NCBI GenBank assembly: GCA_963710605.1
Contig: CAVQBA010000004.1
Coordinates: 960,001-1,024,000 of the forward strand
Source: an uncultured cyanobacterium
GTDB taxonomy: Bacteria > Cyanobacteriota > Cyanobacteriia > Cyanobacteriales > Cyanobacteriaceae
Direction: 5' to 3'
Length of the DNA stretch: 64,000 bases
A model generated the notes under the pieces. The model saw only the letters and a list, made by a program, of their open reading frames with translations. It was not told the origin of the DNA and ran no database searches. This document shows positions 44,361-63,163 of the stretch, one piece after another. The translations under genes were made by a program, and so were the position numbers. Position 1 is the first letter of the stretch, and each line of letters begins with the position of its first letter.

Positions 44361-46053
44361 ATGGCAAAATTGTCATCTAATAAACCAAGGGTGTATAGAC
44401 TTTCTTCTGATGAACAGATCACTGATGAAGTAAAGCTGAGAATAGAAGTCATTCAAACTCTTATAGAGCCATGCGATCGTCAACTATACCGACAACGAAA
44501 GCAAGAAGCAGCTCAAAAGTTGGGTGTGTCCATTCGATCGATTCGAAAGATTGATGAAAAAGTATCGAGAAGAGGGTTTAGTTGGTATTAGTAAAAGTAG
44601 ATCTGATAAAGGAAAAGTTCGTATTGATCGAGATTGGTATGACTTTATTTTGGATACTTATAAAAAAGGTAATCAAAGAGGCAAAAGAATTACTCGGCAT
44701 CAAGTGTTCTTGAAAGTTAAAGGACGTGCTAAGCAATTAAGACTAGAGAAAAAAGATTATCCTAGCCATCAAACAGTTTATCGAATTATCGATTTATATA
44801 TAGAAGAACAAGATAAGAAACGTAAAGCAAGGAGTCCTGGTTATTCAGGTTCTCGCTTGACTCACATGACTCGTGATGGTAGAGAAATCGAAGTGGAAGC
44901 AAGTAATGATGTTTGGCAATGCGATCATACTCGTCTTGATGTCAGATTAATTGACGAATTTGGAATTTTAGATCGTCCTTGGTTGACTATTATTATCGAT
45001 TCGTATTCTCGTTGTTTGATGGGTTTTTACTTGGGTTTTGAAAGTCCTAGTTCTCAAGTTGATGCTTTAGCTTTGCGTCAGGCAATTTTACCGAAATCTT
45101 ATAGTTCGGATTATGGTTTACGTAACGAATGGACTGCTTATGGTACACCGACTTACTTTTATACTGATGGAGGTAAAGATTTTCGCTCAATTCATTTGAC
45201 AGAACAAGTCGCTGTACAGTTAGGTTTTAGTTGTTCTTTAAGAAGACGACCTTCTGATGGAGGTATTGTCGAACGTTTTTTTCGTACTCTCAACGATAGT
45301 GTTTTAAGAGAACTACCTGGATATACAGGAGCAAATGTTCAACAACGTCCCAAAAATGTCGATCTCAATGCTTCTCTTACTCTCAAAGATTTAGAGCTAA
45401 TTTTAGTTCGTTATATTATTGACGAATATAATCAAAAAGCCGATGCCAGAAGAAAGGATGCTACTCGGATGCAATTGTGGGAAAGCGGCTTAATTGTCGA
45501 ACCCGAACCCTACAATGAAAGAGAACTTGATATTTGTTTGATGAAACAAACAAGAAGAACGATTCAGAAGTTTGGCACGTTGCAATTTGAGAATGTAACC
45601 TATAAAAGTAATCATCTTCGAGGCATGGCTGGTGAAGTTGTCGTAATTTGTTACGATCCCGAAGATATTACTACAATATTAGTATATGAGCGTTTGAATG
45701 ATGATACAGAGCAATTTTTAGATTATGCTATAGCTCAGGGATTGGAAGCGGAAAAACTATCACTACGAGAATTAAAAGCTATTAATAAAAAATTGAATCA
45801 AGAGCAGGAAAAAATTAATAATGATGCTGTACTTGATGCCATTTTAGAACGAGAAGTTTTAGTGGAGGAGTTGAGTAAAAAGAATCGTCAAGAACGTCGT
45901 CAAGTAGCTCACCAAGAAGTTAATACCGTTAGAACAGTAGCAGAAAAGTTAAATATTGCTGAGCCTGAAGTTGTGGAAGAGGAAGAAAATGAAGAGGAAG
46001 AGTTACCTTCCTATCAAGTCCAGTATATGGATGACCTTTTTGATGATGATTAA
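44361..46053 (+). CDS. tnsB: DDE transposase TnsB, one frameshift near the 5' end
   Basis: WQCDHT, IDSYSRC, YTDGGKDF, GGIVERFF; removing one base at ~44542 joins the HTH (AAQKLGVSIRSIERL). Confidence 0.93.
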
Positions 46054-46076
46054 TTATTAGTGGAGATTAATAGTAA

Positions 46077-46934
46077 ATGACGAATGCGGAAGTAATTGCG
46101 AATCAGTTTGGTAGTTTGCCTACTATCACTCCTGAAATTCAAGCCCAAATCGATCGATTAAATAAATATCCCTATATTGAGTTCAAGCAAGTGAAAGAAT
46201 GTCATGATTGGATGTATGAATTAGTACTTTCTCGCATGACGGGTTTACTGGTGGGAAAATCTAGTTGTGGTAAAACGGTCACTTGCAAATCTTTTATGGC
46301 AAGATACAATAAATCAAAGCAAGGAAACAAACAGAGAATTAAGCCCGTAGTTTATATTCAAGTTCCTGAAAAATGTGGTTCGAGAGATTTTTTTATCAAA
46401 ATACTTAAGGTGTTGAATAAACCAACTAAGGGAACAATTTCAGATTTGAGGGAAAGAACGCTTGACGGTTTGGCGATTCATTGTTGTGAAATGTTAATCA
46501 TTGATGAAGCTAACCACCTCAAACAAGAAACCTTTGCTGATGTTAGACATGTTTATGATGAGGATGATTTAAATATCTCGGTTTTATTGGTTGGTACAAC
46601 AAATCGTTTAGAAACAGTTGTTAGAAGAGATGAACAGGTAGCTAATCGCTTTTTGGAAGAATACGAACTCGATAGATTAGATGATAAGGAGTTTAAAACT
46701 ATTGTGAGAGTTTGGGAAAGAGATATTTTGAGATTACCCGAACCTTCTAATTTAGCAACAGCCGAAAATATTAGACTGTTGAAAAGCTCTACTCGTAAAT
46801 TACTCGGACGTTTAGAGAAAATTTTACGTAAAGCAGCGATTCGTTCTTTATGCAGGGGAGAAAAACATATTACGCCTGAAATTTTGAAGCAAGTAATTAG
46901 TTCTACTAAATGGTCTGATGAAAGAAGAAAATGA
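46077..46934 (+). CDS. tnsC: AAA+ ATPase TnsC
   Basis: Walker A GKSSCGKT, Walker B MLIIDEA, LVGT, RDEQVANRF. Confidence 0.93.
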   Translation: MTNAEVIANQFGSLPTITPEIQAQIDRLNKYPYIEFKQVKECHDWMYELVLSRMTGLLVGKSSCGKTVTCKSFMARYNKSKQGNKQRIKPVVYIQVPEKCGSRDFFIKILKVLNKPTKGTISDLRERTLDGLAIHCCEMLIIDEANHLKQETFADVRHVYDEDDLNISVLLVGTTNRLETVVRRDEQVANRFLEEYELDRLDDKEFKTIVRVWERDILRLPEPSNLATAENIRLLKSSTRKLLGRLEKILRKAAIRSLCRGEKHITPEILKQVISSTKWSDERRK

Positions 46935-47430
46935 GTTATGGTTAACAAAAATTGAACCATTCGCAGGGGAAAGTATCAGTCATTTTTTAGGTCGCTTTCG
47001 TCGTGCGAGAGGAAATCGTTTTTCTGCTCCTAGTGGTTTAGGAGAAGTGACAGGATTAGGTTCGGCTATATCTCGATGGGAAAAGTTTTATTTTTCACCT
47101 TTCCCCACACAAGAAGAGTTAGAAAAATTAGCAATAGTTGTGATGTTAGATGTCGATCGTCTTACACAGATGTTTCCTGATGAAGGTATGGTAACGCAAC
47201 CAAAACCAATTATGCTTTGTGCAATGTGTTATCAAGAATCTCCTTATCATCGAATAGAGTGGCAAGATAAGAAGAATAAAAGAGGGTGTAGAGTCCATAA
47301 TCTAAAACTACTTTCTAAATGTACTAATTGTGGAACTCCTTTTGCTATTCCTTCGATGTGGGTTGAAGGAAAATGTAGTCATTGTCATCTACCGTTCATG
47401 AAAATGAGTAAAAAACAAAAATCTTTGTAA
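46918..47430 (+). CDS. tniQ: TniQ
   Basis: PFAGESISHFLGRFRR, RWEKF, zinc-finger Cys pairs; short V-K type. Confidence 0.93.
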   Translation: MKEENELWLTKIEPFAGESISHFLGRFRRARGNRFSAPSGLGEVTGLGSAISRWEKFYFSPFPTQEELEKLAIVVMLDVDRLTQMFPDEGMVTQPKPIMLCAMCYQESPYHRIEWQDKKNKRGCRVHNLKLLSKCTNCGTPFAIPSMWVEGKCSHCHLPFMKMSKKQKSL

Positions 47431-47542
47431 ACTCTTATTTGGTTAGGATGATTAGTAACTATATATTTTACCCACAATTAAATAAACCCTGACCAATTCG
47501 ATATTAAGTCTGAAGCAATTTCAAAGTGAGTACAGTTGAAAT

Positions 47543-50500
47543 ATGAATCGAAATGCTTTAGTTATTGGAATAAATAACTATCCTTTTTTGAAAAAAACCA
47601 ATGGACAAACAAACAATTTGACTACTCCAGCAACAGATGCTGAAGCGATCGCATCCTTATTAGAAAATCATGGTAACTTTAAAGTTAAACGATTACCAGA
47701 AGCTAGTATTGACGGCAAGCTACAGGTAGATCCGAATGGAACAGTTAACGCTAAAGAATTACAAAAAGAAATAAAAAATTTATTTTTACCAGAAAGTCAA
47801 CAAATTCCTGATACTGCCTTATTATTTTTTACTGGACATGGTTTGAGAAAAAAACAAGCAAAAAGATATAAAGGCTTTTTAGCAACGAGTGATTGTAATT
47901 TTAGTCAAGATAGATACGGTTTTTCACTACAAGTTTTAAGAGAAATATTAGAAAATAGTGATATTCTTCAACAAATAATCTGGTTAGATTGTTGTTATGC
48001 AGGAGAATTACTTAATTTTGAGGAAGCAAATCCAGAAGAAAAAGGAAGAGCGAGAGATCGTTTTTTTGTAAGTGCATCTGCTGATTTTGAAGAGGCGTAT
48101 CAGCTTTTAAATAAAAAATCAGGAGCTTTAAGTAGTGTCTTATTAAGAGGACTCAATCCTCGACAAAAAAAGCAACAACAATGGATTAATAATTTTTTCG
48201 TAGCTGATTTTATTTGTGAAGAATTTCAAACAAATCCTCAACTCAAAAATTTACCTCAAAGACCTGTTTGTCATAACTATGGAGGAATAATTCAACTTAT
48301 TCAAGGAGAAAAAATAGACGAAGAAATAAAAATTGATACATTAATTTCATCATCTCAAAAAACACAACAAAAATTGACTGTTGAGTTGATGTATAAGCAT
48401 TTTGAAAGAGTCAAAGCTATTGCTGGAACACGCTATACTCCCGAAATTAATGTTGATTTGCCAGAAGCTAGAATCTTTGAAGCTTTAGGTACAACAGATG
48501 TTTTCTTCAACAAAATTAACAATTTATATTCTCAGCTATATCATAAGTGGAAAAAGATTAAGATATTACCACAATCATTACAACAATTTATTTATATAAT
48601 CAATTTAAGAAATAATCTAGAAAATGATATCAAACCATTAATCAATATTTTGAAAAAAATACCAGAAAGAGATACGTTAATTATAGATTTTGACTCTATG
48701 GTTTCTTATTCAAAGAAAATTTCTGAGTATGATATTTTTGATTTAATTTATCCAGATAATATTAACCAAATAAAAAAATCAAAAGATAACAATAATGATG
48801 ATTTAAATAGAGCTTTAAATTATATTTATAATGATGTTTCCAAGCTCAAAACATTAGTAACCGAAATTTATCAACTTGTCATAAATGAAGTAGCGGCTTG
48901 TCATAACAGAAAACTTCTACTTATTGGAGAAGCGGGTACAGGTAAAACTCATCTCTTGTGTGATATTGCTAAACATCGTCTTGATAAATCACTCCCAACA
49001 ATAATTTTATTAGGACAACATTTTACTCAAGGTAATCCTTGGACTCAGATTATCAACCGATTCAATCTTTCGTTTCAAAATCAAGATGAATTCTTAGAAG
49101 CATTGGAAACTAGTGCAAAAAGTTGTGGTAGTCGAGCAATGATTTTGATTGATGCTCTTAATGAAACTACTGATAAAGGTTTATGGAAAAATGAATTAGC
49201 GGGGATGTTAACAGATTTAGATAACTATCCAAATATTTGTATTGCTGTCAGTTGTCGAACTTCATACGAGAAAGCAACAATTCCCGAAGAACTTGTTCCA
49301 GAAAAATTAGTTAAAGTTAAACATCATGGGTTTGAAAATCACGAATATATTGCAACAAAAACCTTTTTTAATCATTATGGAATTGAGCTTCCCAATGTAC
49401 CTTTACTAGTTCCAGAGTTTTCTAACCCACTTTTTTTGAAAACACTTTGTCAAGGTCTTAACAAGAAAAAATTAACCCGAATACCCAAAGGTTGTAAAGG
49501 AATTACTGCTATTTTAAATTTGTTTATAGATTCAGTTCATAATACTTTATCTGAACGACTTAATTATGACGAAAAAGATAATTTAGTGAAAAAAGCGTTA
49601 CAAGCTCTAGCTTTAACTATGGCAGACAATGGAGAAACTTGGATAGAAAGAAAAAAAGCACGAACTATTGTTAATTCGTTTTTACCGATAAGCAATAGTA
49701 ATTTTTCACAGAGTTTATTTAGTAATCTAATCGCTGAAGGATTATTATCAGAAGATTTACATTATTCTTCTTCAGAAGATATATACGAAGATGAGCAAGA
49801 AATTCATATTATTAGATTTCCTTACGAAAAATTTAGCGATCATTTAATTGTTCGTTATTTACTGCAAAAATACTTTGATAAAAATAATCCTGAGAAATCA
49901 CTAGAAAAAAATAACTCATTAGGAAAACTAATACAAAATAAATGGAACATATTTAACAAAGCTGGTTTATTTGAAGCTTTGTGCGTTCAAATACCCGAAT
50001 TAATTGGCAAAGAATTAATGGAATTAACATCATGGAATGTATTGTATTTTGAACGTCCATTTCTACAAAGTATTATTTGGCGTAATCCAAAGACAATCAC
50101 TCAAAAAACCAAAGATTATCTTAATGAAATATTTAAGGAAGAGGGAACAGAAGAAAAAGTTTATGAGCTTTTACTTACAGTTGCAACTGAACCAAACCAT
50201 CCTCTAAATGCCAAGTATCTGCATAAACATCTTCTCAACATGAATATGTCAGATAGAGATGCTATTTGGTCTGTTTATCTCTATTATCAATATGGAGAAA
50301 AAACGATTGTCGATCGTTTAGTTGAATGGGCATGGGATGCAGAAAAAGCTCATATTTGCGATGAGTCGATCGAACTTTATGCGATCGCTTTAACATGGTT
50401 TTTGACAACATCCGATCGTTTTCTTCGCGATCGAGCTACCAAAGCTTTAGTTTCAATGCTACATCCTAGACCTCTTGTTTTAGTGAAAGTGATTGAACAA

Positions 50501-52559
50501 TTTTTAGAAGTTAACGATCTTTATGTTTTAGAGCGTTTATATGCTGTTGCTTATGGCGTAGCGATGCTAAGTGAAAATTATCAAGAAGTAGGAGATCTAG
50601 CTCATAAAGTATATGAGTGGGTATTTAAAGATGAAAAACCACCAACACATATTCTTTTACGTGATTATGCTAGTGGAGTCATTGAAGTAGCAAATAATCT
50701 TGGGGCTTTATCAACCAATATAGATATGGAGAAAACCTCACCTCCTTATCAAAGTGATTGGGAACTAGATATTCCGACACAAGAGGAGCTAGAGCTATAT
50801 ATTAAACTAATTAAGCTTTGTTTTGATAATAGTATAACAAAACTAATATTACTATCCCTTCTTCAATCGTGGGATCTTAATTGCTTAATGATTTATTGGT
50901 TAAATTTTTGGTTGATAATCACTTTAAGAACAACTGATAGTGAATATCATCAACATCCTAAATATGCTTTAGACTTAGTCCAAAGATCTGTTCTTAATGA
51001 TGACCCTGTAATGGGAGGTGACTTTTCTATATATGTGATAGATTATTGTACCAATAATTGGTTTTCTCGCAGAATAAATCAACCCAAGGAATTAACTAAA
51101 AAAGAAAAATATGAGCAGTTTATTGACTCTCTTACTGATAAACAAAAACAAGCATGGAAAAAATATACGATAGCACGAGAAAACGTGAACTACTATGAAA
51201 CATTAGATCGAGAAGGTCGTATAGAATGCTTTGGAGAAGAATATTCAGATGAAAAATTAGTAGAGGCATTAGAATTTAAGAAATCATTATTTTTAAAGAC
51301 AATTGGTAAAAAGAAAACAGACATTTTTCTAAGTTATGTTCTGGATTATTTAGAAAATTCACGAGAAGAAAATATAGATATTTTTGATTCTTCCTTCGCA
51401 AAACGATGGATTCTTAAGCGGGTATTCGAATTAGGCTGGACGATCGAACAATTTGGCTTTTTCGATCGACACTGTTCCAGTCAAATGTCGTATTGCTAAT
51501 AAACCAGAGCGTATAGGTAAAAAATATCAATGGATTGCTTTTCATGAGTTTTTAGCACATATGGCGGATAATTTAGAGTTTAGAGAATCTTATTTATCCG
51601 ATAAAGTATCTGTTTATCAAGGTACTTGGCAAATTAGTGTAAGAGATATCGACCCATCTTTTTTATTGAAAAAAATTCCAGAATCTTCAATAAACCAAGT
51701 TAGATGGTTGACACCTGTTCACCACGAATTTAAGCATTGTATTAATGAAAAAGAACAAATAGATTGGATAACCAAAAAAAATGATTACCCCGATCCTTTA
51801 CAATTGATTGAATTAAATAATCCTGACGATAATAAACACTGGTTAACGTTAGAAGGTTTTTACCGATGGATGGAAAAAGAACCTTTAGAAGAAAAAATTT
51901 ATGAGAATCCTCGCAGAGAAATTTGGTATCAAATCAAAAGCTATATTGTTCGTAGTGAAAATGTAGATGAATTAGTTGAATGGTTAAAAGATAAAAATTT
52001 TGAAGGTAGATGGATGCCAGAATCACATCATATATCTAATGTTTCTGATGCTTTTTTGGGTGAATTTCCTTGGTCTGTATCTTGTCAAGAAGTAAATCAA
52101 ATCAATGATTGGACTCAATACACTAGTTCTCAAGAAGAATTACCACACCCAGTTTTAGTAACAACAACAGAATATATGAGTGAGGAAGGTGGATTTGATT
52201 GTTCGATTGATGAGACAATATCAGCTTTGATACCATCTAGTTGGCTAATAAAGAATATGGGATTAAAATGCTCCAGGAAAAAATTTGATTTTGTCGATTC
52301 AGATAACGAATTAACTGCTTTTACTCCATTAGGTGAACGACTTCCTAAAAATTGTCTGATCTCTAAAGAAAAATTGGCTCGTTTTCTGTTAGAAAATAAT
52401 TTAGAGATTATCTGGACATTATTGGGTGAGCGTCAACTTATTGGTGGCGAATTTGGTAAATGGAAAGGACGTATGGAAATTTCAGGAGTATATCAACTAA
52501 AAAATGGTTCAGTAACTCAAATAAAACTGAATAATTGGCATAACAAACCAAAAGAATAA
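47543..52559 (+). CDS. Caspase (peptidase C14) fused to an Avs2-like STAND NTPase, one frameshift
   Basis: ALVIGINNY, FTGHG, WLDCCYAG; RYTPEINV, GEAGTGKTHLLCD, LIDALNE, LRDRATKAL; ERIGKKYQWIA lies in the second ORF after a frameshift at ~51483. Confidence 0.8.
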
Positions 52560-52601
52560 AAGATTGGAGAATTGCAACGAATTAATTTTAAACGATCGAT
52601 T

Positions 52602-54287
52602 TTAACTTGCTTCACTCTCCTCAGGATTATTTTCACTCTGTAACTTTCTTAATCCTTGATTGGCAATATCCGCACTCAATCCCCATAAAAATAAACCTAA
52701 ATAATCATATAATCCATTAACTCCAAAAGTTGCTCCTGCGTTTACATATAAAGTTTGTAATCCTAATAATACTAAAAGAATCAAGAAAACTAACCATAAA
52801 AGAGGACGAATTAACCAATAACGCACTTCTGCATTGAGAGTTTGAATACCAGATAATGCCGCTAAAAGTTTTGCCAACCAATTCCAACGATGACCGCCAG
52901 GAAGTCTAGGTTTTGGTAAAGCTTGAAAAGCCTCAATTAACTGATTACTATTTTCACGAAAGCTATCTAATAAAGGTTGAATAATATCATCACCTATTCC
53001 CATTGAACCATCTGCTTGTGCTTCTCTTAATTTGTCCTCAACTTCATTACTTAATTGTTGTGCTTGTTCGAGATTACCATTGATTAATGACTCTCTAGCT
53101 TCGTTGATTTTAGGATTTAATAATGCTTTGAGTGCATCTAATTCATTTAATTTAGTTTCTAAAGCTTCTAAGTTACTTGAAAAACTAACGATGATATCAA
53201 GCTTCTTCAATTCTTGTTCTACTATTTCTTCTGTTTCTTCTCCTCGATCGATTTTCTGTTTTAATGCTTGAAATTGTGGCTCTAAATAATTCAAAACATC
53301 TTCATTATTAATACTGACTGCTTTACCACGCAATTGAGCGTAACGAGGATAAAGGTTAACCTGTTTTTGTGCTTTAGGACTTTCCATATCCTGTGATAGT
53401 CTTCCTACCAGAATACCCAAAATAATCACAATTAAAGCCCAAATAGGTGCATCACGTACTGCTATAGTTGTATTAACCTTGAGGGGTTCATCAGCATTTT
53501 CTAACTTAAATCTTAAAGTACCCTGATAAAAGTCTGCGGAAAGTTGATTGCGATTAATTATTAACTCAATATCTCCAATATCTTGAGTTTCCAAAGTTGG
53601 ATTAAGAACAGTTAGAGATATTTCACTACTATTTACTGAATTACCTGTTTTTTCCCCTTGCATGACTACCTTCGCATCAGTAATTTGAACAGGAATTAAA
53701 GTTTCATTATCTAGCTGTACTATCCATTGATTCTTTGTCACGCTATCTGGTAATAACAAAGTGGCTAATCCACAACTAATAGGGTTATGACAACGAACTA
53801 CTTGAAAGTTTAAGTTGTCAGTAACAGGAGCAACATTAGGTTCGGCATCAATATCTAATTGCAAAGGGATTTCTAAAGGTTCAACATCCGTTTGTCCTGA
53901 AACTATAAACTGAATATTACCTTGATATTTACCTGGATGAATAATATTATTTATAGTAACTCGTACATCACGAGGTTGTCCTTTACTTAAACTTGTTCCT
54001 GTTGGAATGTTGATTTGGCTACGATCGATCTTGATACTGTCATCATTTACTTTAGTAAGATCAGAGGGGAGTATTTGCAAATCCTTAACTTCACCATCAG
54101 TTAATGTCAGCCTTACGTTACCACTAAAAGAAGTCGTTTCCTGATCTAATGTTCCTTTTATAATTAAAGGATTATCTTGCTTATCAACTATCAAACTAGG
54201 TAATTCCTGAGCTAAAACTTGAGATGAACTAAATATAATGACAACAAAGCTAATAACTAAAGTAAAACGCAACAATAACTTTCCCAT
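52602..54287 (-). CDS. Secreted/membrane protein of unknown function
   Basis: Signal peptide (..QVLA), two beta-rich repeats (PGKYQGNIQF / ADFYQGTLRF), TM, coiled coil, two C-terminal hydrophobic segments. Confidence 0.75.
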   Translation of the reverse strand: MGKLLLRFTLVISFVVIIFSSSQVLAQELPSLIVDKQDNPLIIKGTLDQETTSFSGNVRLTLTDGEVKDLQILPSDLTKVNDDSIKIDRSQINIPTGTSLSKGQPRDVRVTINNIIHPGKYQGNIQFIVSGQTDVEPLEIPLQLDIDAEPNVAPVTDNLNFQVVRCHNPISCGLATLLLPDSVTKNQWIVQLDNETLIPVQITDAKVVMQGEKTGNSVNSSEISLTVLNPTLETQDIGDIELIINRNQLSADFYQGTLRFKLENADEPLKVNTTIAVRDAPIWALIVIILGILVGRLSQDMESPKAQKQVNLYPRYAQLRGKAVSINNEDVLNYLEPQFQALKQKIDRGEETEEIVEQELKKLDIIVSFSSNLEALETKLNELDALKALLNPKINEARESLINGNLEQAQQLSNEVEDKLREAQADGSMGIGDDIIQPLLDSFRENSNQLIEAFQALPKPRLPGGHRWNWLAKLLAALSGIQTLNAEVRYWLIRPLLWLVFLILLVLLGLQTLYVNAGATFGVNGLYDYLGLFLWGLSADIANQGLRKLQSENNPEESEAS

Positions 54288-54417
54288 AGGAGATCGAGTT
54301 ATATTAATTTGTCCAATAGAATCATAGCAATTCTAGCAATCAGATGAAAAAACTTTTTCTTGTTCTACAAGTTCTTTGAATAAAAATGCCTAAGAAGTAG
54401 GATTTTCTATTTTTGAG

Positions 54418-57400
54418 TTAACCACACACAGGTTGAGCTAATTTTACATCAGCAGAAGCAAATAAGCTGTAAGCTAATCCTCTGGGGTCTAAATGTTCTC
54501 GTAATAAGCTGTGACGAGATTTAAATAAGGCTTCTCCTGCGGGATTTTGCTGTAAGAAGGATTGGAAAAAGTTAACCATAAAAGCATTCGCTAACATTTC
54601 TTTTACTTCACATTGCGTACCAATCACTCCAGCCGCACCTCAATCGCAGAAAAATTGTAGTAAATTCTCAAAATTATCAGGGGTATAATCAGCAGTGTCA
54701 CAAGCATTGAGAACAATTAAAGGTTGATGCTGGTCAAATTTCATATCCCATGCATCTAAATCTATTAACTGTATTTTATCACCATTACCAATAGTCAAAA
54801 AAGGACTATCATCAAATTCATCTATGCCTCCATGAGTATAAAAGTATAAAATATCTGCTGGAGTAGTACCATAATTTTTAATCATTTGTTTGAAGCTATC
54901 ACGGCTATCAATTCGCAGAAATTCTAGTTGTTTTGCTGAGGCTAATTTTCCTAATTCTTCCCAATGATGAGCTAATCGTTTAAAGTTGTTAAAGACAGTT
55001 GCATTAACTAATAACGGTAAATTATTACGAATAAATAAGGGTAAGGAATTTTTTGGTAAAGGTTTATGGGGTTCAAGTTTACAAGGTAATTGCTCGATAA
55101 TATAACGATAGCCCCAAAAACTATGAGGACAAACGGTTATTTCTTCCTCATCTGTACCATAACTAGGACAATCTTCAGGATTGGCACCATGTTGATGCCA
55201 ATTAGGACAAAGTTTAGTAACTCCCTCTTGATAAGACTCTATTTTTCGTTCATAAAGTAATTCCCAAGGTACACCTAAAGCACTAGATAAAGGAGCAACT
55301 TGAATTACTGTTTCGGGTTTTAAATCTACATTTAATCTTTGTCTGTCATCATGAATATCTTCTTGATAATCTAATCCCGGTAGTAAAGCTAAATAGAATT
55401 TTCTACCAATAACTGCTAATTCTCCTAAATGTTTAGTTAAAACTGCTTCTGTACTGCCTAATGTTCCTGAATAGGCGTTCATCGTTTGACATAATTGTTT
55501 ACGTATTACTGTTAAGGCTTTGGTTAATTTAGCGTCGGTTAAGGTTGATTGTTGAAAGCCTAAATCTGTTCCTTCTGTATCATAAAAGCGAAGTCCAATG
55601 CGATTATAGTCTATATCTCTTTCAGCGACAATCGTTAATTTACGAGGTTTATCTTGAAGAGGTTTTAAATCTTCAGTGCTTAAAGAGACAGCACGAGTCC
55701 AAGTTACATAAGCATCTTGCACAGGAAATGCTGATTCTGGTGGTTCATCTTCTGCATTTTCTACCACATCAATTTCTATTCTTTTTGATTGTAATAAATG
55801 CCCTTGTAAAAGTAGGTCTATATCAATACTATGTCTTCCTGTACGAGTAAAGGTTAAATCAAAAAAGATATATTCACTATCTCCTTTGGGAGGAAGTTTT
55901 AGTTTTTGAATTGGTGAATCTATTTCTACATCAAAAGAATTAACAACTACATCTAAATCTAAATATTCTTTATCTTCAAATAAGGTTTTTATTGATTCAT
56001 CTGGAAAGGTAACGTTAGGGTTTCCTATTCCCCAAAATTTACCAATATTAATTTTTAGATAATACTTTTTGGTATTTAGTTTCAATGGTTGATGAGTTGA
56101 GATATTTTTTTTCTCATTCAGTAAACAAAAACCACAATTTAGATAACGTTTTTCAAAAGAAAACGATTTATCTTTATTTGATAATTGTTGCTTAATTGCG
56201 TTATTAAGAATTCTATTTTCAGAAATATCATTTTCAGTAATGTGACCTGAATCTAAACAATTGGAAATAGCATTACTAACCTCATCCTTAAATGAATATC
56301 TTTGCACAATTCGCACATAAGACACTGCTTTACAACCCTTGGACCAAGACATGACTAAAGTATCGAAAATATCTTTAGCTTTTAAGGCTCTTTCTTCTTC
56401 GTATTTAAAATAAACTCCTTGGTTAAGGTTAAAGAGTAATTCCATCGAAATCCCCGTATCAATCCATTGTTGAATTGTGGCGATCGCTTTTACTACTTCA
56501 TCTTGATGCAAATTTTTATTTTCTTGATAAAACCAATATTTATCACTAATATAAGGAGGTGCGATCGCTACTGTTCCTGTTGCCCACTTATCATAGAAAA
56601 ATCTACTATATACAGGTAAGACACTTGCTGTACATCCTTGAACCAAAGAAGAAGATGTATTAGGTGCGATCGCAGTTATATGTGAGTTACGTATTCCGTG
56701 TTGTTGAATATCTAATGATAATTGTTGCCAACGAGATGTATTGTAAGCGTTTTGCTCGAACCATTCCACAGGCTTACAACCAATTAATAAACCTTTACTC
56801 CAATCGCTATTTTCAAAGGCAGGATAAGCACCTCTTTCTTGAGATAGCTTCATAGAAGCATGAGTACAATAATAACCAATATCTTCAAATAAGTTACTAA
56901 TTTGATTGAGGTTGTTGTATCTTAATTGACGTTTGGCTAACCAATCGGCTAACCCCATCGCACCAACACCAATGGTACGATAACGATCGTTATGAGATGC
57001 GGCATCTTCAAAAGGAGGTTGAGTAATTTCGATCGTATTATCTAAAATTCTCACGGCTAAATTACAGACAGATTCAATTATTTGATCATCCACATTAGCT
57101 AAATTGAGCGATACTAAATTACAACAATGAGCATATTTACCAGGGGTAACATTAGAAAAAGATTCGGTACATAAATTGACACCAGGAATATAACCATCAT
57201 GTTTATTTGGATTAGCTCGATTAATGGCATCTTTAAAAGCTAAGTAAGGCATTCCTGTCTCTACTTGTGCTTTCATTATTTCTTTGAATAATTCTCTAGC
57301 ACTTACTTTTTTGTAGAGTTTGATTCTGGTATCTATACTTGCTTCAATTACAGAGTAAGCCTCTTCAAATTCTTTACCCCATAAAGGTGCTAAATCGATA

Positions 57401-58567
57401 CCTAAGTTCTGTTGTACTTCATAAGGATCGATTAAAGTCCATTCTTGCCTATTTTGTACCCGACGCATAAATTCATCGGCGATAACTAGTTGAGGAAAGA
57501 CATCGTAGGCTTTACGACGTTGGTCGCCATTTTCGGTTTGCATTTCCAAAAATTCGGGTACATCTAAATGCCAAATATCTAAACCGACGGTAACTGCCCC
57601 TGCTCGTCTTCCTCCTTGATTAACAGCAATAGCTGTATCGTTGAGTAATTTAATCCAAGGTATTACACCACCTGAAGCGTTGTTTTTACCCATTACAGCA
57701 CTGCCTGTGGCACGTATTCTGGATACATTAACTCCTACTCCACCACCATTTTTAGAAATACGAGCGGTGTTAGTTATTTCTCGGAAAATACTTTCTAAGT
57801 TGTCGTCAATACTCACAATAAAACAACTTGTCAATGAGCCATTTGGTACTCTTAAGTTCGCCAAAATCGGTGTAGCTAAAGAAATACGACGAGATGCGAT
57901 CGCTTCGTAAAATTGACGAGCATAATGTAATCTCTCTTCAGGTGCCTCTACCATCGCTAATAATAAAGCACAAGTTAAAAACGCTTCTTGAGGTAACTCA
58001 TCATCAAGTAAATAACGATTAGTTAGTAAAACTGCCCCTGCGTAGTCATAATCTAAATCCCAGTCAGAATTAATCCAACTACCCGCTTCTTCTAATTCTG
58101 CGGTTGAATAAGTTAAAATACGATCGTCATATTTACCTTGAGCAACAAAGTCACTTACTGTTTGTACATAATTACCGTAGTTATAACCCCGACTAACTAA
58201 AATTTCTTTCCACAAACTCCAAATATATAAACGCCCAGCTACATAACGCCAATCTGGTTGCTCCAGAATCACATAATTCTAAAGCACAGTTGATTAAATT
58301 ATCTTGAATTTCTCTAGTCGTAATTCCATGACGTAAACGAGTTTTCAAACCCGATTCTAAAGCAATTGAATTAACTTCTTTGGGGTAACAAGCCCAATCA
58401 ACAACTTTTCTGATTTTACTAATGTCTAAAGGAGCAAATTGACCACTTCTTTTGATTACTTGAATTTGCTTAGGTAATTTTTCGTATCGTAACTTATCTA
58501 GATTATGCTTTACATTATCATCTATAAAAGTTTTTTTTTCTTGAACTTGATTTTTAGATGAACTCAT
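54418..58567 (-). CDS. ATP cone-ribonucleotide reductase alpha (class I)-CHAT protease fusion (one frameshift, one in-frame stop)
   Basis: ATP cone VIKRSG..ITTREIQ; RNR motifs LTSCF, NQGGRRAGA, NLCTE, CCNLVS, APNTSSS; CHAT motifs VPWELLY, YFYTHGG, LNACDT, VIGTQ. RNR and CHAT lie in one uninterrupted 1210-aa ORF. Confidence 0.88.
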
Positions 58568-58657
58568 GAAATTGATACATAAATAATTGTAATAAAATAA
58601 ATGCTTAAAATTTAGTTATAACAGTACATACTATAAAAAATCAGAATATTTATATTT

Positions 58658-60928
58658 TTACTTAACTAATTCTTGAGCTAACTTAACATCAGCAGAAGCA
58701 AATAAACTATAAACTAAACCTCTAGGATCTAACTGATTTAATAGTATTTTACGAGCCTGAAATAACGCTTCCCCTGCACAAGTTTTTTGAAAGAAAGACT
58801 TAAAGAAATGAATCATTAACTCATTAGCTAACATCTCCTTTACTTCACATTGTGTACCGATTACTCCCGCCGCACCTTTATCATGAAAAAACTGTAACAA
58901 ATTTTCAAAACTTTCAGGACTATAGCCAGCAGAATCACAAGCATTTAATACAATTAAAGGTTGATGTAGATTAAAATTAATATTCCAAGCATCTAAATCA
59001 TTTTTCTTAATTTGTTCTCCATCTCCCACTTCAAGATATGGTCTTCTAAAAATATCACTTCCTCCATGAGTATAAAAATACAAAATATCAGCAGAATTAT
59101 CAATATCGAATAAAGCAGATTCTACCTTATCTAAACTATCAAGTTTTAATAATTCCAGTATTTCTTTAGATGCTAAATTACGTAAGTTTTGCCAATGTTC
59201 ATCTAATAGATTTAATTCATTAGAAACGATCGCCTTAAACTGTAAAGGTGACTGATTACGAATTAATAAAGGTAAAGAATGCTCAGGGGTAGAAGCATGA
59301 GGCATAACTTTACAAGGTAATTGCTCAATAATATAGCGATAACCCCAAAAACTATGGGGACAAACTGTTTTGGCTTCTTCTTTTGTGCCATAACTAGGGC
59401 AATCTTCAGGATTCGCACCGTGCTGTTTCCATGTGGGACAAAGTTTAATTTTTCCTTCACGATAACTTTCTATTTTACGCTCATAAAGTAACTCCCAAGG
59501 CACACCTAATTGACTCGATAAAGGTGCTACTTGAATGATAGTTTTTGGTTGTAAATCAACTCTTAAATTTTCTCCCCTATCTATCTTATTTTTTTGCCCA
59601 GATAACTTGGGTAATAATTCTGTATAAAATGATCTGCCAATATCGGCTAATTTACCTAAATGCTTAGTTAAAACTTCTTCTGTACTCCCAATACTGCCTC
59701 CATAACCTTTTACCATTGTTTCACATAATTGAGTCCGTATTGCAGCTAAAACTTGAGTTAAATTATCATTAGTTAGTTGAGAATGTTGGCAACCTAAATC
59801 TTTTCCTGTGTTATCGTAAAATCTTAAGCCGATACGATTATAATCAATATCCCTTTCCGTTACTATGGTTAACCTACGAGGATTCTTCTTTAAAAAAGTT
59901 AATTCATCTGGATTTAAAGTAGCACTACGAGTCCAAGTAATATAAGCATCTTGTACTGGAAAAGCAGATTCTGGGGCAATATCTCCTGATTTTTCCACCA
60001 CATAAACTTCAACTCGTTTTGACTGTAATAAATACCCATGAAACATTAAATCAATATCAATACTTTGTCTTTGAGTGCGAGTAAAAGTCACAGGAAAATC
60101 AATAAATTCACTATCACCTATTTTGGAGAGTTTTAATCGTTGTTGACTAGATATGATTTCAACGTCAAAAGAATGAAGTATTACATCCATTTCTAAAGTA
60201 TCTTTATCTTCAAAAAAAGGCTCTAATAATTCTTCTGGTAAAGCAGTATCGGGAGAACCAATTCCCCAAAATTTCCCAACATTAACTTTTAAAATATACT
60301 CGGCGATTTCTAAAGCTAAAGGCTGTTGGGTATCGACAAATCGATAATGATTTAATGAATAATGATCTAATTGATAAAATCCTGTATTTATATAACGAGG
60401 CTGTATTTTATCTATACCTTTGTCTATATCTTCTCTTATAACTCCCTCATCGGAATTACTTACATCGGTAGCTGAATTAAAATAATACTCAAATTTTTCA
60501 TCTATATTGGAATTGGTAATTAACTGCTTAGGATTATCCGATTTGAAAATCTGGCTAGCGGCAACAATAATGGGTACAGAATTATTTTCATCTATACCAA
60601 AAGTAATCGGTTTATTTTCTTCTAAGTTTAATTTTTCTATATCCTGCCAAGTAGGTAATATCTGTTCGACTGATTCTTTCCCGAAGGTACTTTCAATTAA
60701 ATTCAATTTAAAGTAATTTGCTTGATATATCCTCTTTAATTCTTCATCGTTTTCAATAATTGTCATTAACGCTGGTTCAATTTCTTCTTCCCAGTCTTCA
60801 GGTGCCATTTCCAGCATATTCCCAATATTTCTTAATGACTCTAACCTTTCTGGAGGTAGAGTTGCATTGAATTCTCTTAAAGTTGGTAAAACAATAGAAA
60901 GTGTTCTATTAATATCTAAATTTGCCAT
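58658..60928 (-). CDS. CHAT-domain (caspase-clan) protease with uncharacterised N-terminal domain
   Basis: VPWELLY, FWGYRYIIEQ, YFYTHGG, LNACDS, GAAGVIGTQ; start set at ATG 60928 (MANLDINR). Confidence 0.88.
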   Translation of the reverse strand: MANLDINRTLSIVLPTLREFNATLPPERLESLRNIGNMLEMAPEDWEEEIEPALMTIIENDEELKRIYQANYFKLNLIESTFGKESVEQILPTWQDIEKLNLEENKPITFGIDENNSVPIIVAASQIFKSDNPKQLITNSNIDEKFEYYFNSATDVSNSDEGVIREDIDKGIDKIQPRYINTGFYQLDHYSLNHYRFVDTQQPLALEIAEYILKVNVGKFWGIGSPDTALPEELLEPFFEDKDTLEMDVILHSFDVEIISSQQRLKLSKIGDSEFIDFPVTFTRTQRQSIDIDLMFHGYLLQSKRVEVYVVEKSGDIAPESAFPVQDAYITWTRSATLNPDELTFLKKNPRRLTIVTERDIDYNRIGLRFYDNTGKDLGCQHSQLTNDNLTQVLAAIRTQLCETMVKGYGGSIGSTEEVLTKHLGKLADIGRSFYTELLPKLSGQKNKIDRGENLRVDLQPKTIIQVAPLSSQLGVPWELLYERKIESYREGKIKLCPTWKQHGANPEDCPSYGTKEEAKTVCPHSFWGYRYIIEQLPCKVMPHASTPEHSLPLLIRNQSPLQFKAIVSNELNLLDEHWQNLRNLASKEILELLKLDSLDKVESALFDIDNSADILYFYTHGGSDIFRRPYLEVGDGEQIKKNDLDAWNINFNLHQPLIVLNACDSAGYSPESFENLLQFFHDKGAAGVIGTQCEVKEMLANELMIHFFKSFFQKTCAGEALFQARKILLNQLDPRGLVYSLFASADVKLAQELVK

Positions 60929-60976
60929 TTTTTTAAGTACATTGACAATAACTAATAAATAACAAAATAAATCCAA

Positions 60977-61153
60977 CTAATCCATTAATTTTTTTTGTGA
61001 AGATGGAATCTTGCCCTCATTTTCAGCATCTTCAATCGCTCTTTCCACCAAATAAGCCGCTAAATTAGCCACAGGACGACCTTGATTATTAGCCCATCTT
61101 TCCAAAGTTTCAAATACCTTATCTGGCAAAGTTAAATATACTCTCTTTGTCAT
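60977..61153 (-). CDS. Ribbon-helix-helix (CopG/Arc-like) repressor, 58 aa
   Basis: Not in ORF track. Translated by hand: MTKRVYLTLPDKVFETLERWANNQGRPVANLAAYLVERAIEDAENEGKIPSSQKKLMD; divergent from cas12k. Confidence 0.88.
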   Translation of the reverse strand: MTKRVYLTLPDKVFETLERWANNQGRPVANLAAYLVERAIEDAENEGKIPSSQKKLMD

Positions 61154-61250
61154 TTTATAATTCGATTATTGCAACCCCTACTATCCTATAACGAAAATAA
61201 AATATAATCTTATTTACACCATTAAAGCCACTAATTAGTAACTAATATTA

Positions 61251-61259
61251 TGCTATAAT
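61251..61259 (+). promoter_or_regulatory. Extended -10 element upstream of cas12k
   Basis: TGCTATAAT ending 32 nt before the ATG. Confidence 0.55.
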
Positions 61260-61291
61260 TAATTGACATTCTTTTCATCAAATGAAATACA

Positions 61292-63163
61292 ATGAGTATC
61301 AAAACGATCGAATGTCGTCTTTATGCTTCTTCAGAAACTAAACGTTATCTTTGGCAGTTAATGGCAGATAGAAACACTCCTCTAATAAATGAGTTACTAT
61401 TTCAAGTCAGTCAACATCAAGACTTTGAAACTTGGTTTCAGACTAAAAAAATTGCTCAAAAACCCATCAAGGATATTTGTTTACCATTAAGACAACTTCC
61501 TCAATATCAAGAACAACCAGGAAGATTTTTCACGAGTGCGATTGCTTTGACTCATTACATATATAAATCATGGTTCGCAGTTCAACAGAGGCTTCAGCGA
61601 CGAATTGAAGGTAAACGTAGATGGTTTAATATTCTCAAAAGCGATTTAGAATTACAACAATTATCGGGTAACTCTATTGAAAAAATTATTACTCAAGCAG
61701 AAAAAATACTTGAGGACACTGAAACTCAGTTAAAACAAACAAAAAAAGATAGGAATAAAAAGAAAGATTCTAATTTATTCAACCACTTGATCGACGAATA
61801 CCAATCAAAAACTAATACTTTAGAACGGTGTGCGATTGCTTACTTACTCAAAAATCAATGCCAAATACCAGATGAAATAGAAGATATAGCTAAATTTGAG
61901 CAATATAGAAGAAAAAAAGAAATCGAAATCGAAAGACTTCAACAGCAACTAGAGAATCGTCTGCCGAAGGGTAGAGATTTAACTAGTAGAGAATGGTTTG
62001 ATACTTTGGCGATTGCATCAGAAAAAGTACCTGAAACTGAAAATGAAGCATCCGCTTGGCAAAGTAGCTTGTTAAGAAAATCACCGATTATTCCTTACCC
62101 AGTTAGTTATGAAACTAACACCGATTTAAGTTGGTCAAAAGATCGGCGAGGACATCTATTAGTCAAATTTAATGGTATTAGTAAACATCAGTTTGAAATA
62201 AGATGCGATAGAAGACATTTACATTGGTTTCAACGCTTTTGGGAAGATAGACAAATTTACAAACAAGATCCAACTAAATATAGCAGTGCCTTATTCACAC
62301 TTCGTTCTGCTCGTTTATTATGGCGTGAAAATAAAGGAAAAGGTAATCCTTGGGATATTCATACACTCTACTTACAATGTTCGCTAGATACTCGTTTTTG
62401 GACAGTAGAAGGTACACAAGAAATTGCTCAAACTAAAATTACTCAAACAAAAGAAAAATTAGAAAAAATTCAAGCTAAACCAGTTCTTAATTCTAATCAA
62501 GAAGCAGATCGACAACGAAAGCAATCTAGCTTAGAGAGAATCCAGAATCCTTTTCCACGACCACATAAACAACATTATAGAGGTAATCCCAATCTTATCT
62601 TAGGAGTTAGTTTTGGATTACGAAAACCTGCCACTGTTGCTGTAGTTAACGTTTTGACTCAAAAAGCGATCGTTTATCGTAGCATCAAACAATTATTGAA
62701 TGAAAACTATAAATTACTGAATCGTCAACGTCAACAGAAAATAGAATTGTCAAAACAAAGACACAAAGCCCAAAAACACGAAGGATTTAATCAAATAGGA
62801 GAGTCTAATTTAGGTGAATATGTCGATCGATTGATTGCCAAAGCGATCGTTGATATTGCCAAATCTTATCGAGTAGGTAGTATTTTTTTACCAGAACTGA
62901 AAAATATTCGTGAAATTTTACATAGTGAAGTTCAAGCTAAAGCAGAAATTAAAATTACTGGTTATAAAGAAGCTCAGAAAAAATATATGAAAGAATACCG
63001 TAAAAATTTACATCAATGGAGTTATAGCAGACTAATAGAATCAATTAGTCAACTAGCCAATCAAGAAAGAATATCCGTTGAATTTATCAAACAAAGTAAT
63101 GATGGTACACAGCAGGAAAAAGCTAAAAGGATAGCGATCGATGGTTACAATTCTCGCTCTTGA
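61292..63163 (+). CDS. cas12k: Type V-K effector Cas12k
   Basis: MSIKTIECRL, LWQLMA..NTPLINELL, QPGRFF, GVSFGL (RuvC-I Asp replaced), HQWSYSRL; 623 aa. Confidence 0.96.
   Translation: MSIKTIECRLYASSETKRYLWQLMADRNTPLINELLFQVSQHQDFETWFQTKKIAQKPIKDICLPLRQLPQYQEQPGRFFTSAIALTHYIYKSWFAVQQRLQRRIEGKRRWFNILKSDLELQQLSGNSIEKIITQAEKILEDTETQLKQTKKDRNKKKDSNLFNHLIDEYQSKTNTLERCAIAYLLKNQCQIPDEIEDIAKFEQYRRKKEIEIERLQQQLENRLPKGRDLTSREWFDTLAIASEKVPETENEASAWQSSLLRKSPIIPYPVSYETNTDLSWSKDRRGHLLVKFNGISKHQFEIRCDRRHLHWFQRFWEDRQIYKQDPTKYSSALFTLRSARLLWRENKGKGNPWDIHTLYLQCSLDTRFWTVEGTQEIAQTKITQTKEKLEKIQAKPVLNSNQEADRQRKQSSLERIQNPFPRPHKQHYRGNPNLILGVSFGLRKPATVAVVNVLTQKAIVYRSIKQLLNENYKLLNRQRQQKIELSKQRHKAQKHEGFNQIGESNLGEYVDRLIAKAIVDIAKSYRVGSIFLPELKNIREILHSEVQAKAEIKITGYKEAQKKYMKEYRKNLHQWSYSRLIESISQLANQERISVEFIKQSNDGTQQEKAKRIAIDGYNSRS

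Follow-up and report, generated by a model that had tools for sequence, protein, structure and literature searches.

What is a ribonucleotide reductase (RNR) alpha subunit doing in front of a CHAT protease on a mobile element, and can it still work as an enzyme? The gene in question lies on the minus strand of a 64,000-nucleotide stretch of DNA from an uncultured cyanobacterium, analysed here as a whole and called the window (Table 1). The original prediction regarded its RNR part as a pseudo-enzyme selected for ligand or partner binding, repurposed rather than joined by chance.

The RNR part is a copy of the host nrdA gene specific to this lineage. It shares 673 of 728 residues (92%) with host NrdA and is sister to host nrdA in the tree with 100% support, and its Pfam domains are the ATP-cone (PF03477, 44.2 bits), PF00317 (57.4 bits) and PF02867 (441.8 bits). 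Like the class Ia NrdA of E. coli and of the host, the fused copy has the ATP-cone, the all-alpha N domain, the ten-stranded barrel, the catalytic residues, Y731 and loop 2. Unlike them, it has Ser at Y730, lacks the CxxC tail and the N-extension (MLLDTQ) that is conserved in NrdA, both of which are replaced, continues for about 720 further residues that end in a CHAT protease, and sits on a transposon rather than at the nrdA locus. As the copy has neither the nrdA start, the N-extension nor the stop and is in frame at both ends, it was cut within the nrdA coding sequence on either side. Downstream of 56282 there is no resemblance to the host nrdA 3' flank, and the CHAT-family core begins at RYLNCGF. 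The copy occupies the site of the variable N-terminal module of the CHAT family.

Table 1. Features of the fused gene and its surroundings in the window
Feature	Position	Strand	Basis
Type V-K CRISPR-associated transposon frame	44524-63163	.	Pfam, PADLOC, Cas12k match; known here from genes
TnsB-like	44524-46053		Pfam Mu-transposase/rve match
TnsC/TniB	46077-46934		Pfam TniB match
Candidate TniQ (TniQ-sized ORF)	46918-47430		Size and position only
Avs2, cargo	47543-52559		PADLOC
561-aa membrane protein, conserved partner gene of the CHAT family	52602-54287	-	54% identity to gene downstream of P0002
Last 73 CHAT-domain codons, in frame past the TGA, fully conserved; true stop TAA 54418-54420	54421-54639	-	Alignment
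In-frame TGA, context GCGATTGAGG	54640-54642	-	ORF reading
Conserved core and CHAT protease domain	54643-56148	-	Pfam CHAT; His in YFYTHGG (54826-54846), Cys in LNACDTA (54691-54711)
Junction and 44-residue linker (VSNAIS...SFSFEK), in place of NrdA tail CTACAN	56149-56281	-	nrdA homology ends at 56282
Host-nrdA-homologous stretch, host codons 36-763, ATP-cone to last barrel strand	56282-58467	-	88.6% nucleotide identity
Ser-Tyr (TCT TAT) at the Tyr-Tyr radical relay dyad site (E. coli Y730-Y731)	56317-56322	-	Alignment
HCCNL motif, Cys = E. coli C462 equivalent	57115-57129	-	Alignment
NLCTE motif = N437, C439, E441 equivalents	57163-57177	-	Alignment
TSCF motif, Cys = E. coli C225 equivalent	57820-57831	-	Alignment
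ORF with unique 34-residue N-terminus and ATP-cone	58193-58567	-	Pfam ATP-cone; as assembled, out of frame after residue 100
Extra base vs host nrdA: GATTCTGGAG, where GATCTGGAG would hold frame; apparent +1 frameshift	58268	-	DNA alignment with host nrdA
Paralogous CHAT-family gene P0010, common MANL-type N-terminal module	58658-60976	-	Pfam CHAT 54.5 bits
Cas12k	61292-63163		E 7.8e-186 against PDB 7n3o

Across 56240-56345, the minus-strand translation reads ...SWSKGCKAVSYVRIVQRYSFKDEVSNAISNCLDSG... The original prediction deduced the loss of the tyrosine dyad from the residues GCKAVSYVR, and alignment with E. coli K-12 NrdA and host NrdA bears this out: the Ser codon at 56320-56322 (S651 of P0001) falls on the position of E. 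coli Y730, and the following Tyr on Y731. Where the fused protein reads A-V-S-Y-V-R, host NrdA reads CKAVYYVRIVQRDSFKEECTACAN, and one A-to-C difference (TAT to TCT) accounts for the replacement of Tyr by Ser. Both the S-Y and the junction recur in a protein of 108 aa from the same locus in a second assembly (P0025). In ordinary cyanobacterial NrdAs the dyad is not SY, since YY is present, as is the terminal CxxC[AT]N, in 30/30 such proteins (the host's own and 29 from relatives; 10 further matches with no locus, or with genes split by inteins or contig ends, were left out). Both losses are thus unique to the fused copy in the comparison with host and ordinary NrdA that had been proposed. Of the ways in which the prediction might have been undone, SY in ordinary NrdA is contradicted by these 30 proteins, and the second assembly speaks against a read error in the Ser codon.

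The C-terminal CxxC tail is also absent, as NrdA homology ends one codon before CTACAN. The statement that no CxxC pair follows holds for the NrdA tail and needs correcting beyond it, since the sequence CGFC occurs 61 residues beyond the Tyr (residues 713-716 of P0001). This motif is also carried by P0002 and P0003 and is therefore assigned to the CHAT lineage. The motifs that were said to remain do remain: alignment with E. coli NrdA shows no change at the equivalents of C225, N437, C439, E441 and C462, Y731 is kept, loop 2 (NQGGRRAGAVT) is identical in the fused copy and host NrdA, and the K-R and T..I residues of the ATP-cone, read off the alignment, match host NrdA. Mutagenesis by Ekberg and others reportedly showed that Y730 is required in the relay. 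The relay order is given as Y356(beta)-Y731-Y730-C439 in PMC9231603, where Y730 is described as a required step and Y730F is modelled as a pathway block. With the first relay tyrosine replaced by Ser, a radical from NrdB, of which the genome has one gene, would not be able to reach C439. The residues at the dyad together with the missing re-reduction tail support an RNR module that is disabled for class I chemistry.

The second half of the protein matches Pfam CHAT (PF12770) with 65 bits when the TGA is read as X (cut-off 24) and with 23.2 bits for the ORF as assembled. YFYTHGG and LNACDTA match H621 and C664, residues that 23 family members share without exception (alignment A2). The paralogue P0010 is 61% identical to the fused protein over residues 705-1210. 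Its predicted model (pLDDT 77.8) resembles Csx29, SAVED-CHAT, separase and caspases in fold, with Foldseek E values from 1.2e-08 (7zoq, Csx29) to 2.2e-05 (8tl0, SAVED-CHAT). At about 60% identity, the caspase-like fold predicted for P0010 can be carried over to the fused copy. The N-terminal parts of the CHAT family differ in kind and length, and in 10 long members searched with Pfam, the only N-terminal match was a sub-threshold one to RhoGAP. In 11 of 12 loci (core identity at least 36%), the gene immediately after the CHAT-core gene encodes a homologue of the membrane protein, of about 560 aa. The gene downstream of P0002 on a Calothrix PCC 7716 plasmid is 54% identical to the one in the window. 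No PADLOC family covers the membrane protein. The pair of CHAT gene and membrane-protein gene occurs in cyanobacteria, Chloroflexota, Clostridia, Acidobacteriota and Smithella.

The assembled gene is broken twice, by an apparent +1 frameshift and by an in-frame TGA, both of which went unmentioned in the original prediction. In the second assembly, P0180 (19,093-bp contig) is continuous over the frameshift site (...ELCDLEQPDW...) and on into the RNR body; its first 100 residues are identical to the window ORF with the unique N-terminus and are followed by LEQPDWRY, and Leu occurs at the frameshift position in 11 of 30 orthologues. P0180 itself reads CGATTG for CGATCG, which turns Arg into Cys, at a site that is intact in the window. 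At the TGA position, 15 homologues have Arg (7/15) or Lys (8/15), with FFCDRGAAG in five, among them P0175 (88% identity). In the window's assembly, 12 of 99 conserved orthologues look broken and four of the six independent stops in conserved genes are CGATTGA, a context shared with the TGA discussed here. The GCGATCGC repeat varies at position 6 in 106 per 708 copies, vs 2 per 215 in the relative G004. Across the genome, CGATCG with an inserted T (CGATTCG) shows no enrichment (245 per 8449 CGATCG here vs 9 per 380 in G004), so that the frameshift belongs to no defined error class, and the GATTC context was seen in 0/7 frameshifts of conserved genes. At the lesion rate of conserved genes, about 0.12 per kb, a 3.9-kb gene would be expected to have about 0.5 lesions, and two are thus no excess. 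Among the shorter proteins searched, no identical piece spans the TGA, only homologues with Arg or Lys, and the protein collection holds no exact match of the 1210-aa ORF. A 59-aa protein identical to the tail end comes from a third (Logan) contig, which fits an upstream break there too. Because the second assembly spans the frameshift and the TGA has the CGATCG-to-CGATTG error signature, the gene is probably intact and both breaks are probably assembly errors. A practical lesson is that the motif-linked consensus errors of this assembly mimic pseudogenes.

No other RNR-CHAT fusion was found: there is none in 60 relatives and none in 26 GTDB loci, which leaves it known from one organism, and searches of protein libraries returned no other junction-spanning protein. 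Judging by the match rows, a second full-length free-standing NrdA is present in 0 of the 60 relatives searched. A full-text literature search for 'ribonucleotide reductase' plus 'CHAT domain' returned no paper.

The proposed dN/dS check on the RNR part gave a pairwise dN/dS of 0.068 and a branch pN/pS of 0.12. In counts, the fused branch has 85.5 synonymous and 38.5 nonsynonymous changes (pN/pS 0.119) and the host nrdA branch 88.5 and 19.5 (pN/pS 0.058), so the fused copy has double the ratio of host nrdA (Fisher P about 0.02-0.03); in the core of the RNR part (host codons 103-664) it is 0.092. Changes on its own branch hit 4 of 318 family-invariant columns in the fused copy (K665T, P669A, Y751S, D759Y) and none in the host copy. 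The four are confined to the last 100 residues (P = 0.0095 for so small a span). The CHAT part, counted with the tail behind the TGA, has changes at 5 of 209 family-invariant columns, all of them conservative, where 12 intact members range from 0 to 12; it is as conserved as in intact family members. Neither sign of relaxed selection was found, as pN/pS is far from 1 and invariant residues are mostly kept. These substitution patterns show that the RNR copy evolved under strong purifying selection.

Whether that selection acted on the fusion is the point on which a recent chance event has to be weighed, in which a free-standing second nrdA was an enzyme for most of its time and was then joined to a CHAT gene, the four changes being early decay. 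The selection signal would then predate the fusion and be silent on repurposing. Such a history would explain why C225, N437, C439, E441, C462 and Y731 are kept and so few invariant positions of the RNR part have changed; if all nine invariant-site changes of both halves were neutral, the neutral phase would make up about 3% of the branch, and the fusion is known from one organism. It fits poorly, however, with a copy whose two ends both fall within the coding sequence and keep the frame, with changes clustered rather than spread, with a CHAT half free of decay and with 60 searched relatives that show no second free-standing nrdA, and we consider it unlikely, if still to be reckoned with. The predicted repurposing stands in so far as the class I chemistry appears dead, selection was purifying, the changes cluster and the CHAT part is conserved, and is weakened by the possibility that the selection signal is older than the fusion. 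That the locus is a dead chimeric pseudogene, with a real frameshift and TGA, no protein made and residue losses that reflect decay, would agree with both breaks being present in the window's assembly, with the split in the adjoining Avs2, with the separate 59-aa tail protein from the Logan contig and with the twofold rise in pN/pS over the host copy. We nevertheless regard it as improbable, as the frameshift is absent from the second assembly, the TGA has an assembly-wide signature at a kind of site where the two assemblies disagree, two lesions are no excess, the 73 codons past the TGA are in frame and conserved, and pN/pS is nowhere near 1.

The kept active-site residues and Y731, the CGFC motif and the single nrdB of the genome could also be taken to mean that the protein is still an active reductase, in which Ser at Y730 is tolerated or another radical route is used and CGFC replaces the CxxC tail. 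This is very unlikely, given that Y730 is described as a required relay step (PMC9231603), that Ser is unable to carry a radical, that CGFC is inherited from the CHAT lineage (P0002, P0003) and that all 30 working NrdAs keep YY and the tail. A consensus error at the Ser codon, with Tyr-Tyr in the true protein, might be suspected in so noisy an assembly, where 12 of 99 conserved genes look broken, but it is hardly credible: the context GTG TCT TAT GTG lacks the lesion motifs (CGATCG and, by our own reading, GGCC or GGWCC), the change is an A-to-C transversion, and the second assembly, which differs at error-prone sites, agrees on Ser. The tail loss, being structural, cannot be a base error.

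A copy that is unable to receive the radical, was retained under selection and is joined to a caspase-like protease is probably a sensor rather than an enzyme. We put the chances at about even that the RNR copy, swapped into the N-terminal module site of the CHAT family, radical-dead and kept by selection, works as a sensor that drives the protease. If both breaks are assembly errors, the locus would encode one protein of about 1,380 residues, in which a near-complete class Ia NrdA has replaced the variable N-terminal module of a CHAT protease, with the substrate site, specificity loop and ATP-cone retained under purifying selection. The anatomy of the gene, its lost residues and their uniqueness, the signal of selection and the neighbouring genes come from direct observation; from sensing through protease activation to a role in defence, the working of this protein is what we infer. 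The RNR module may sense nucleotides, with dATP or ATP bound at the cone, dNTPs as effectors and NDPs as substrates, or it may bind a partner of NrdA, be it the NrdB of host or phage, host NrdA itself or a factor from the phage. A conformational or oligomeric change in the module would then switch on the CHAT protease, whose target is likely the neighbouring membrane protein, in the presumed setting of a defence island on a CRISPR-associated transposon. Were the sensor reading true, it would provide a natural, testable case of a host enzyme built into a bacterial immune protein as its sensor or bait, and a first functional handle on the widespread, unnamed pair of CHAT protein and membrane protein.

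More tentatively, the fused NrdA might serve an immune protease as its built-in bait or nucleotide sensor, with CHAT cutting the membrane partner and aborting infection; we find this possible, though rather doubtful. Since it mimics the host RNR alpha subunit, the fused copy could report infection. A surge of dNTP or dATP caused by phage NrdAB might oligomerise the ATP-cones and bring the CHAT domains together, or the copy, perhaps paired with host NrdA in a heterodimer, might capture an RNR-aimed phage protein (phage NrdB, an RNR inhibitor). If so, the loss of Y730 and of the redox tail would be adaptive, with no radical drained from NrdB and no unregulated dNTPs made. We know of no system in which the reductase scaffold itself is the detector. 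Accounts of the defence systems DRT4, DRT2 and Clover report that they respond to dNTP changes caused by phage NrdAB.

Known systems resemble parts of this architecture. SAVED-CHAT is ligand-sensing and is switched on by ligand-driven filament formation. Like SAVED-CHAT (8tl0) and TPR-CHAT/Csx29 of the type III-E Craspase (7zoq, 8eex), the fused protein has a C-terminal caspase-like CHAT domain with a His/Cys dyad behind a putative signal-receiving module; unlike in these, the receiver is an RNR alpha subunit instead of SAVED or TPR, it has a membrane protein as partner, and no CRISPR type III or cyclic-oligonucleotide genes turned up next to the fused gene. Borvo (BovA), a single-gene CHAT defence system in PADLOC, is similar in being a CHAT protease in a defence-island setting. 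It differs in architecture from the present protein, which has an obligate membrane partner, and its profile matches weakly and partially (E 2.1e-05, positions 532-604, or 73 of 711, rather than full length).

Enzymatically inactive alpha scaffolds are described in betaherpesviruses, where the RNR homologues HCMV UL45, MCMV M45 and HHV-6B RNR are kept for immune or cell-death signalling (PMC5469499, PMC11772975). As described there, these homologues likewise retain the RNR alpha scaffold without enzyme activity for protein-protein roles, a role which for the cyanobacterial copy is our inference. They are viral, infect eukaryotes and block host signalling, whereas the copy described here is bacterial, young (92% identical), fused to a protease and has kept its catalytic residues. 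It is a young, and hence readable, example of an essential enzyme that was copied, deprived of exactly its radical inlet and redox tail, retained under selection, and joined to a caspase-like protease on a mobile defence island.

To judge from its genes, the whole set rides as cargo on a type V-K CRISPR-associated transposon. This cargo consists of Avs2, the membrane-protein gene, the fused gene and the paralogue P0010. The Avs2 gene adjoining this group is also split.

The minus-strand stretch at 56240-56345 translates to ...SWSKGCKAVSYVRIVQRYSFKDEVSNAISNCLDSG... and lies within P0001, the main open frame of an NrdA (class Ia RNR alpha) copy joined to a CHAT protease. Pfam places an RNR all-alpha domain and an RNR barrel (441.8 bits) in residues 1-653 of P0001, and the CHAT match at its end is sub-threshold as assembled.

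Features of the window around the fused gene
Feature	Position	Strand	Remarks
TnsB-like, TnsC/TniB and TniQ-sized genes	44524-47430		left side
Caspase-domain Avs2 (STAND NTPase) gene	47543-52559	+	left of the fused gene; two overlapping ORFs, 47543-51499 and 51453-52559
561-aa membrane protein gene	52602-54287		downstream of the fused gene
P0001, 1210-codon open frame	54640-58272	-	translation
124-codon ORF with ATP-cone	58193-58567	-	just upstream of P0001; Pfam
Cas12k	61292-63163		right side; E 7.8e-186 vs 7n3o

The fused protein was aligned with E. coli K-12 NrdA and with the second RNR large subunit of the same genome (G000), hereafter host NrdA. As the original prediction had it, one relay tyrosine is replaced: the Y730 position is Ser (window 56320-56322), and the Y731 position is Tyr. 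The host protein ends in ...CKAVYYVRIVQRDSFKEECTACAN, and homology to nrdA in the fused copy ends a single codon short of the first Cys in CTACAN, so that the predicted loss of the C-terminal CxxC is also upheld. C225, N437, C439, E441, and C462 are conserved and loop 2 is identical to that of the host, in agreement with the expected retention of active-site Cys/Asn/Glu and loop 2. Tyr-Tyr and a terminal CxxC[AT]N occur in all 30 NrdAs counted (the host copy and genes of 29 relatives; the count leaves out 10 further matches that lack a locus or whose gene is split by inteins or contig ends). Ordinary cyanobacterial NrdA therefore does not read Ser-Tyr, and the residue losses are unique to the fused copy. 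A CGFC motif 61 residues past the relay Tyr was ruled out as a relocated RNR tail, because P0002 and P0003 of the CHAT family carry it too.

The RNR part shares 88.6% DNA identity and 92.4% protein identity (673/728) with host nrdA, and the homologous stretch spans window 58467-56282 (host codons 36-763). In place of the N-extension MLLDTQ..TISS that is conserved in the orthologues shown, the fused copy has 34 unrelated residues, and the flanks of the two copies show no resemblance on either side. A maximum-likelihood tree built from 725 gap-free codons of 31 sequences placed the fused copy as sister to host nrdA with 100% support, and a same-genus relative branched next. G000 has one nrdB gene. 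In many relatives (G002, G029, G030, G041, G042, and G047), nrdA is interrupted by in-frame insertions, presumably inteins, which result either in 1100-1190-aa open frames or in fragmented matches; database matches contain LAGLIDADG endonuclease domains (P0182, P0194, and P0213).

Pairwise comparison of the two copies gave dS 0.58, dN 0.039, and dN/dS 0.068. With changes assigned to branches by parsimony using eleven outgroups (ten ambiguous codons excluded), the fused-copy branch carries 85.5 synonymous and 38.5 nonsynonymous changes (pN/pS 0.119) and the host branch 88.5 and 19.5 (pN/pS 0.058; Fisher P about 0.02-0.03 for the difference). The RNR part thus evolved under purifying selection, and to that extent the view of a selected pseudo-enzyme stands; we infer that ligand or partner binding may be what is selected. 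Only 5 of the 318 columns invariant among 29 other NrdAs differ in the fused copy. One difference (G588N) is common to the host copy, which has no private changes at these columns, and the four private ones (K665T, P669A, Y751S, and D759Y) fall within 95 C-terminal residues (P = 0.0095 for a span that small, by sampling). On the fused branch, pN/pS is 0.30 in the ATP-cone (8 nonsynonymous and 7 synonymous changes), 0.092 in codons 103-664, and 0.14 in codons 665-763. The low pN/pS and the few changes at invariant columns argue that the fused copy has been held under NrdA-like constraint through nearly all its history, the apparent exceptions lying mostly around the radical's point of entry and the tail's point of exit. 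At host codon 669, the Pro-to-Ala change and a synonymous ATT-to-ATC produce a perfect GCGATCGC repeat (GTA GCG ATC GCA; window 56374-56385, minus strand).

From RYLNCGF on (window 56148), the fused protein is a member of a CHAT-protease family with a conserved core of ~580 residues and variable N-terminal parts, which include MANL, MIQFY, and longer unknown types; one member has an added sulfatase-modifying domain. Pfam gives the fused copy 65 bits for CHAT when the TGA near its end is read as X. It retains YFYTHGG (His) and LNACDTA (Cys), the counterparts of H621 and C664, which are invariant in the family alignment, and differs, always conservatively, at 5 of the 209 columns invariant in 12 intact members, which themselves differ at 0-12 such columns. 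The predicted model of the neighbouring paralogue P0010 (pLDDT 77.8) matches Csx29, DdvA, separase, SAVED-CHAT, and caspases. In 11 of 12 loci (core identity at least 36%, several phyla), the gene directly 3' of the CHAT core encodes a homologue of the membrane protein. This conserved, unnamed pair (window 52602-56148; GTDB loci L056-L066) was seen in cyanobacteria, Smithella, Clostridia, Chloroflexota, and Acidobacteriota and is absent from PADLOC v2; by sequence reading, the ~560-aa membrane protein combines a signal peptide and a beta-rich outer part with a coiled coil and C-terminal membrane helices. Pairs of a MANL-type and a variable-type CHAT gene may be a recurring arrangement, since another organism also has two CHAT-family paralogues (P0007 and P0011) on one 13,134-bp contig, one of them with an unknown N-terminal part 790 residues long and, at its C-terminus, a sulfatase-modifying-enzyme domain.

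The RNR-CHAT fusion is known from one organism so far. It was not found in 60 relatives or in any of the 26 GTDB loci, and the junction region, used as query in a word-indexed search of 5.8 billion proteins, matched 23, every one a CHAT protein or NrdA. In a HMMER scan of 1.84 billion representatives, only P0025, from a second assembly of the same locus, spans both sides among the best 150 of 197 matches. A literature search found no paper with both "ribonucleotide reductase" and "CHAT domain". P0010 and Cas12k lie to the right of the fused gene, and ~14 kb of defence cargo separates the TniQ-sized gene from Cas12k. With Tns genes on the left and Cas12k on the right, the membrane protein, fused, and paralogue genes thus appear to be cargo of a type V-K CRISPR-associated transposon.

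The NrdA copy stands where other members of the family carry their variable N-terminal part. Having lost radical acceptance and re-reduction, it would still bind NrdA ligands or partners and would serve as the input domain of the CHAT protease, responding either to nucleotides or to a partner of NrdA, with cleavage of the conserved membrane partner as the probable output. The ATP-cone and specificity site drive oligomer changes in class I RNR, and SAVED-CHAT and caspases are switched on by oligomerisation. A nucleotide signal is biologically plausible by analogy, because DRT2, DRT4, DRT9, and Clover are reported to respond to changes in nucleotides that are linked to phage NrdAB. Betaherpesviruses likewise keep inactive RNR large subunits for signalling roles (PMC5469499 and PMC11772975), the likeness being an RNR scaffold without an enzyme role that is used in signalling. 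Sensor-CHAT proteases and RNR pseudoenzymes are both already known, and the fused protein would be a variant of each.

A second, once functional nrdA that recently fused by chance with a CHAT gene is still conceivable, since every catalytic residue survives, but the cut points are internal to nrdA, the four private changes are clustered, and the CHAT half is intact. That the copy is still an active enzyme is unlikely; the relay runs Y356(beta)-Y731-Y730-C439, with Y730F modelled as blocking it (PMC9231603). A miscalled Ser codon is also unlikely, and P0025 has both the junction and S-Y, followed by its own frameshift. It is possible that the gene is a true pseudogene whose lesions are real in the DNA. 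As assembled, one extra base near 58268 parts the ATP-cone from the RNR body, and beyond a TGA at 54640-54642 the frame stays open and conserved for another 73 codons. The inserted T fits no defined error class of G000 in motif counts and the broken-orthologue survey, and a 59-aa protein identical to the tail end, recorded from a Logan contig, fits an upstream break there too. Three results nevertheless argue against a pseudogene, namely the error signature, the second assembly, and the lesion rate.

The G000 assembly looks error-prone. When open frames from 400 kb of a relative (G004) were compared with it (orthologues at 65% identity or more), 12 of 99 conserved orthologues looked broken; the 110 kb compared contain 7 frameshifts and 7 stops. 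Among six independent stops, four are TGAs in CGATTGA, aligned with Arg in three orthologues and with Lys in a fourth, and several frameshifts occur, in our reading of the contexts, at GGCC or GGWCC. The fused-gene TGA sits in GCGATTGAGG, at a position where homologues have Arg (7/15) or Lys (8/15); FFCDRGAAG is common to five, P0175 (88% identity) among them. Position 6 of the GCGATCGC repeat is variant in 106 per 708 copies in G000 vs 2 per 215 in G004, and the variants include C-to-G and C-to-A, which cytosine deamination would not give. The G000 lesions resemble consensus errors made where a CGATCG site is modified (CGATTGA for expected CGATCGA). The second assembly, a 19,093-bp contig, has no frameshift at the 58268 site: its protein P0180 matches the window's ATP-cone ORF exactly for 100 residues and runs on as LEQPDWRY... 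into the RNR body without a break. At one GAT-CGT codon pair within a CGATCG site, P0180 has Cys in place of the window's Arg, and it carries its own frameshift farther on. The two assemblies are broken at different places and therefore point to consensus errors. Two lesions are no excess, because the rate in conserved genes (~0.12 per kb) predicts ~0.5 for the 3.9-kb fused gene by our arithmetic. Judged from these sequence comparisons, the fused gene is probably intact in the organism.

Such motif-linked error may also explain the 84.9% completeness of the 7-contig genome. Variants at positions 3 and 6 of GCGATCGC are far commoner in G000 than in G004, and examples of lesions are window 54640-54642 and G000:C4:1230508, C1:63199, C5:67049, and C4:643374. 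The apparent Avs2 frameshift sits in a TTTTT run between two CGATCG sites. A KaiB-domain histidine kinase (SasA-like; window 41503-42722, plus strand) is split at 42195/42198 into two ORFs in different frames, a probable assembly frameshift in a conserved gene.
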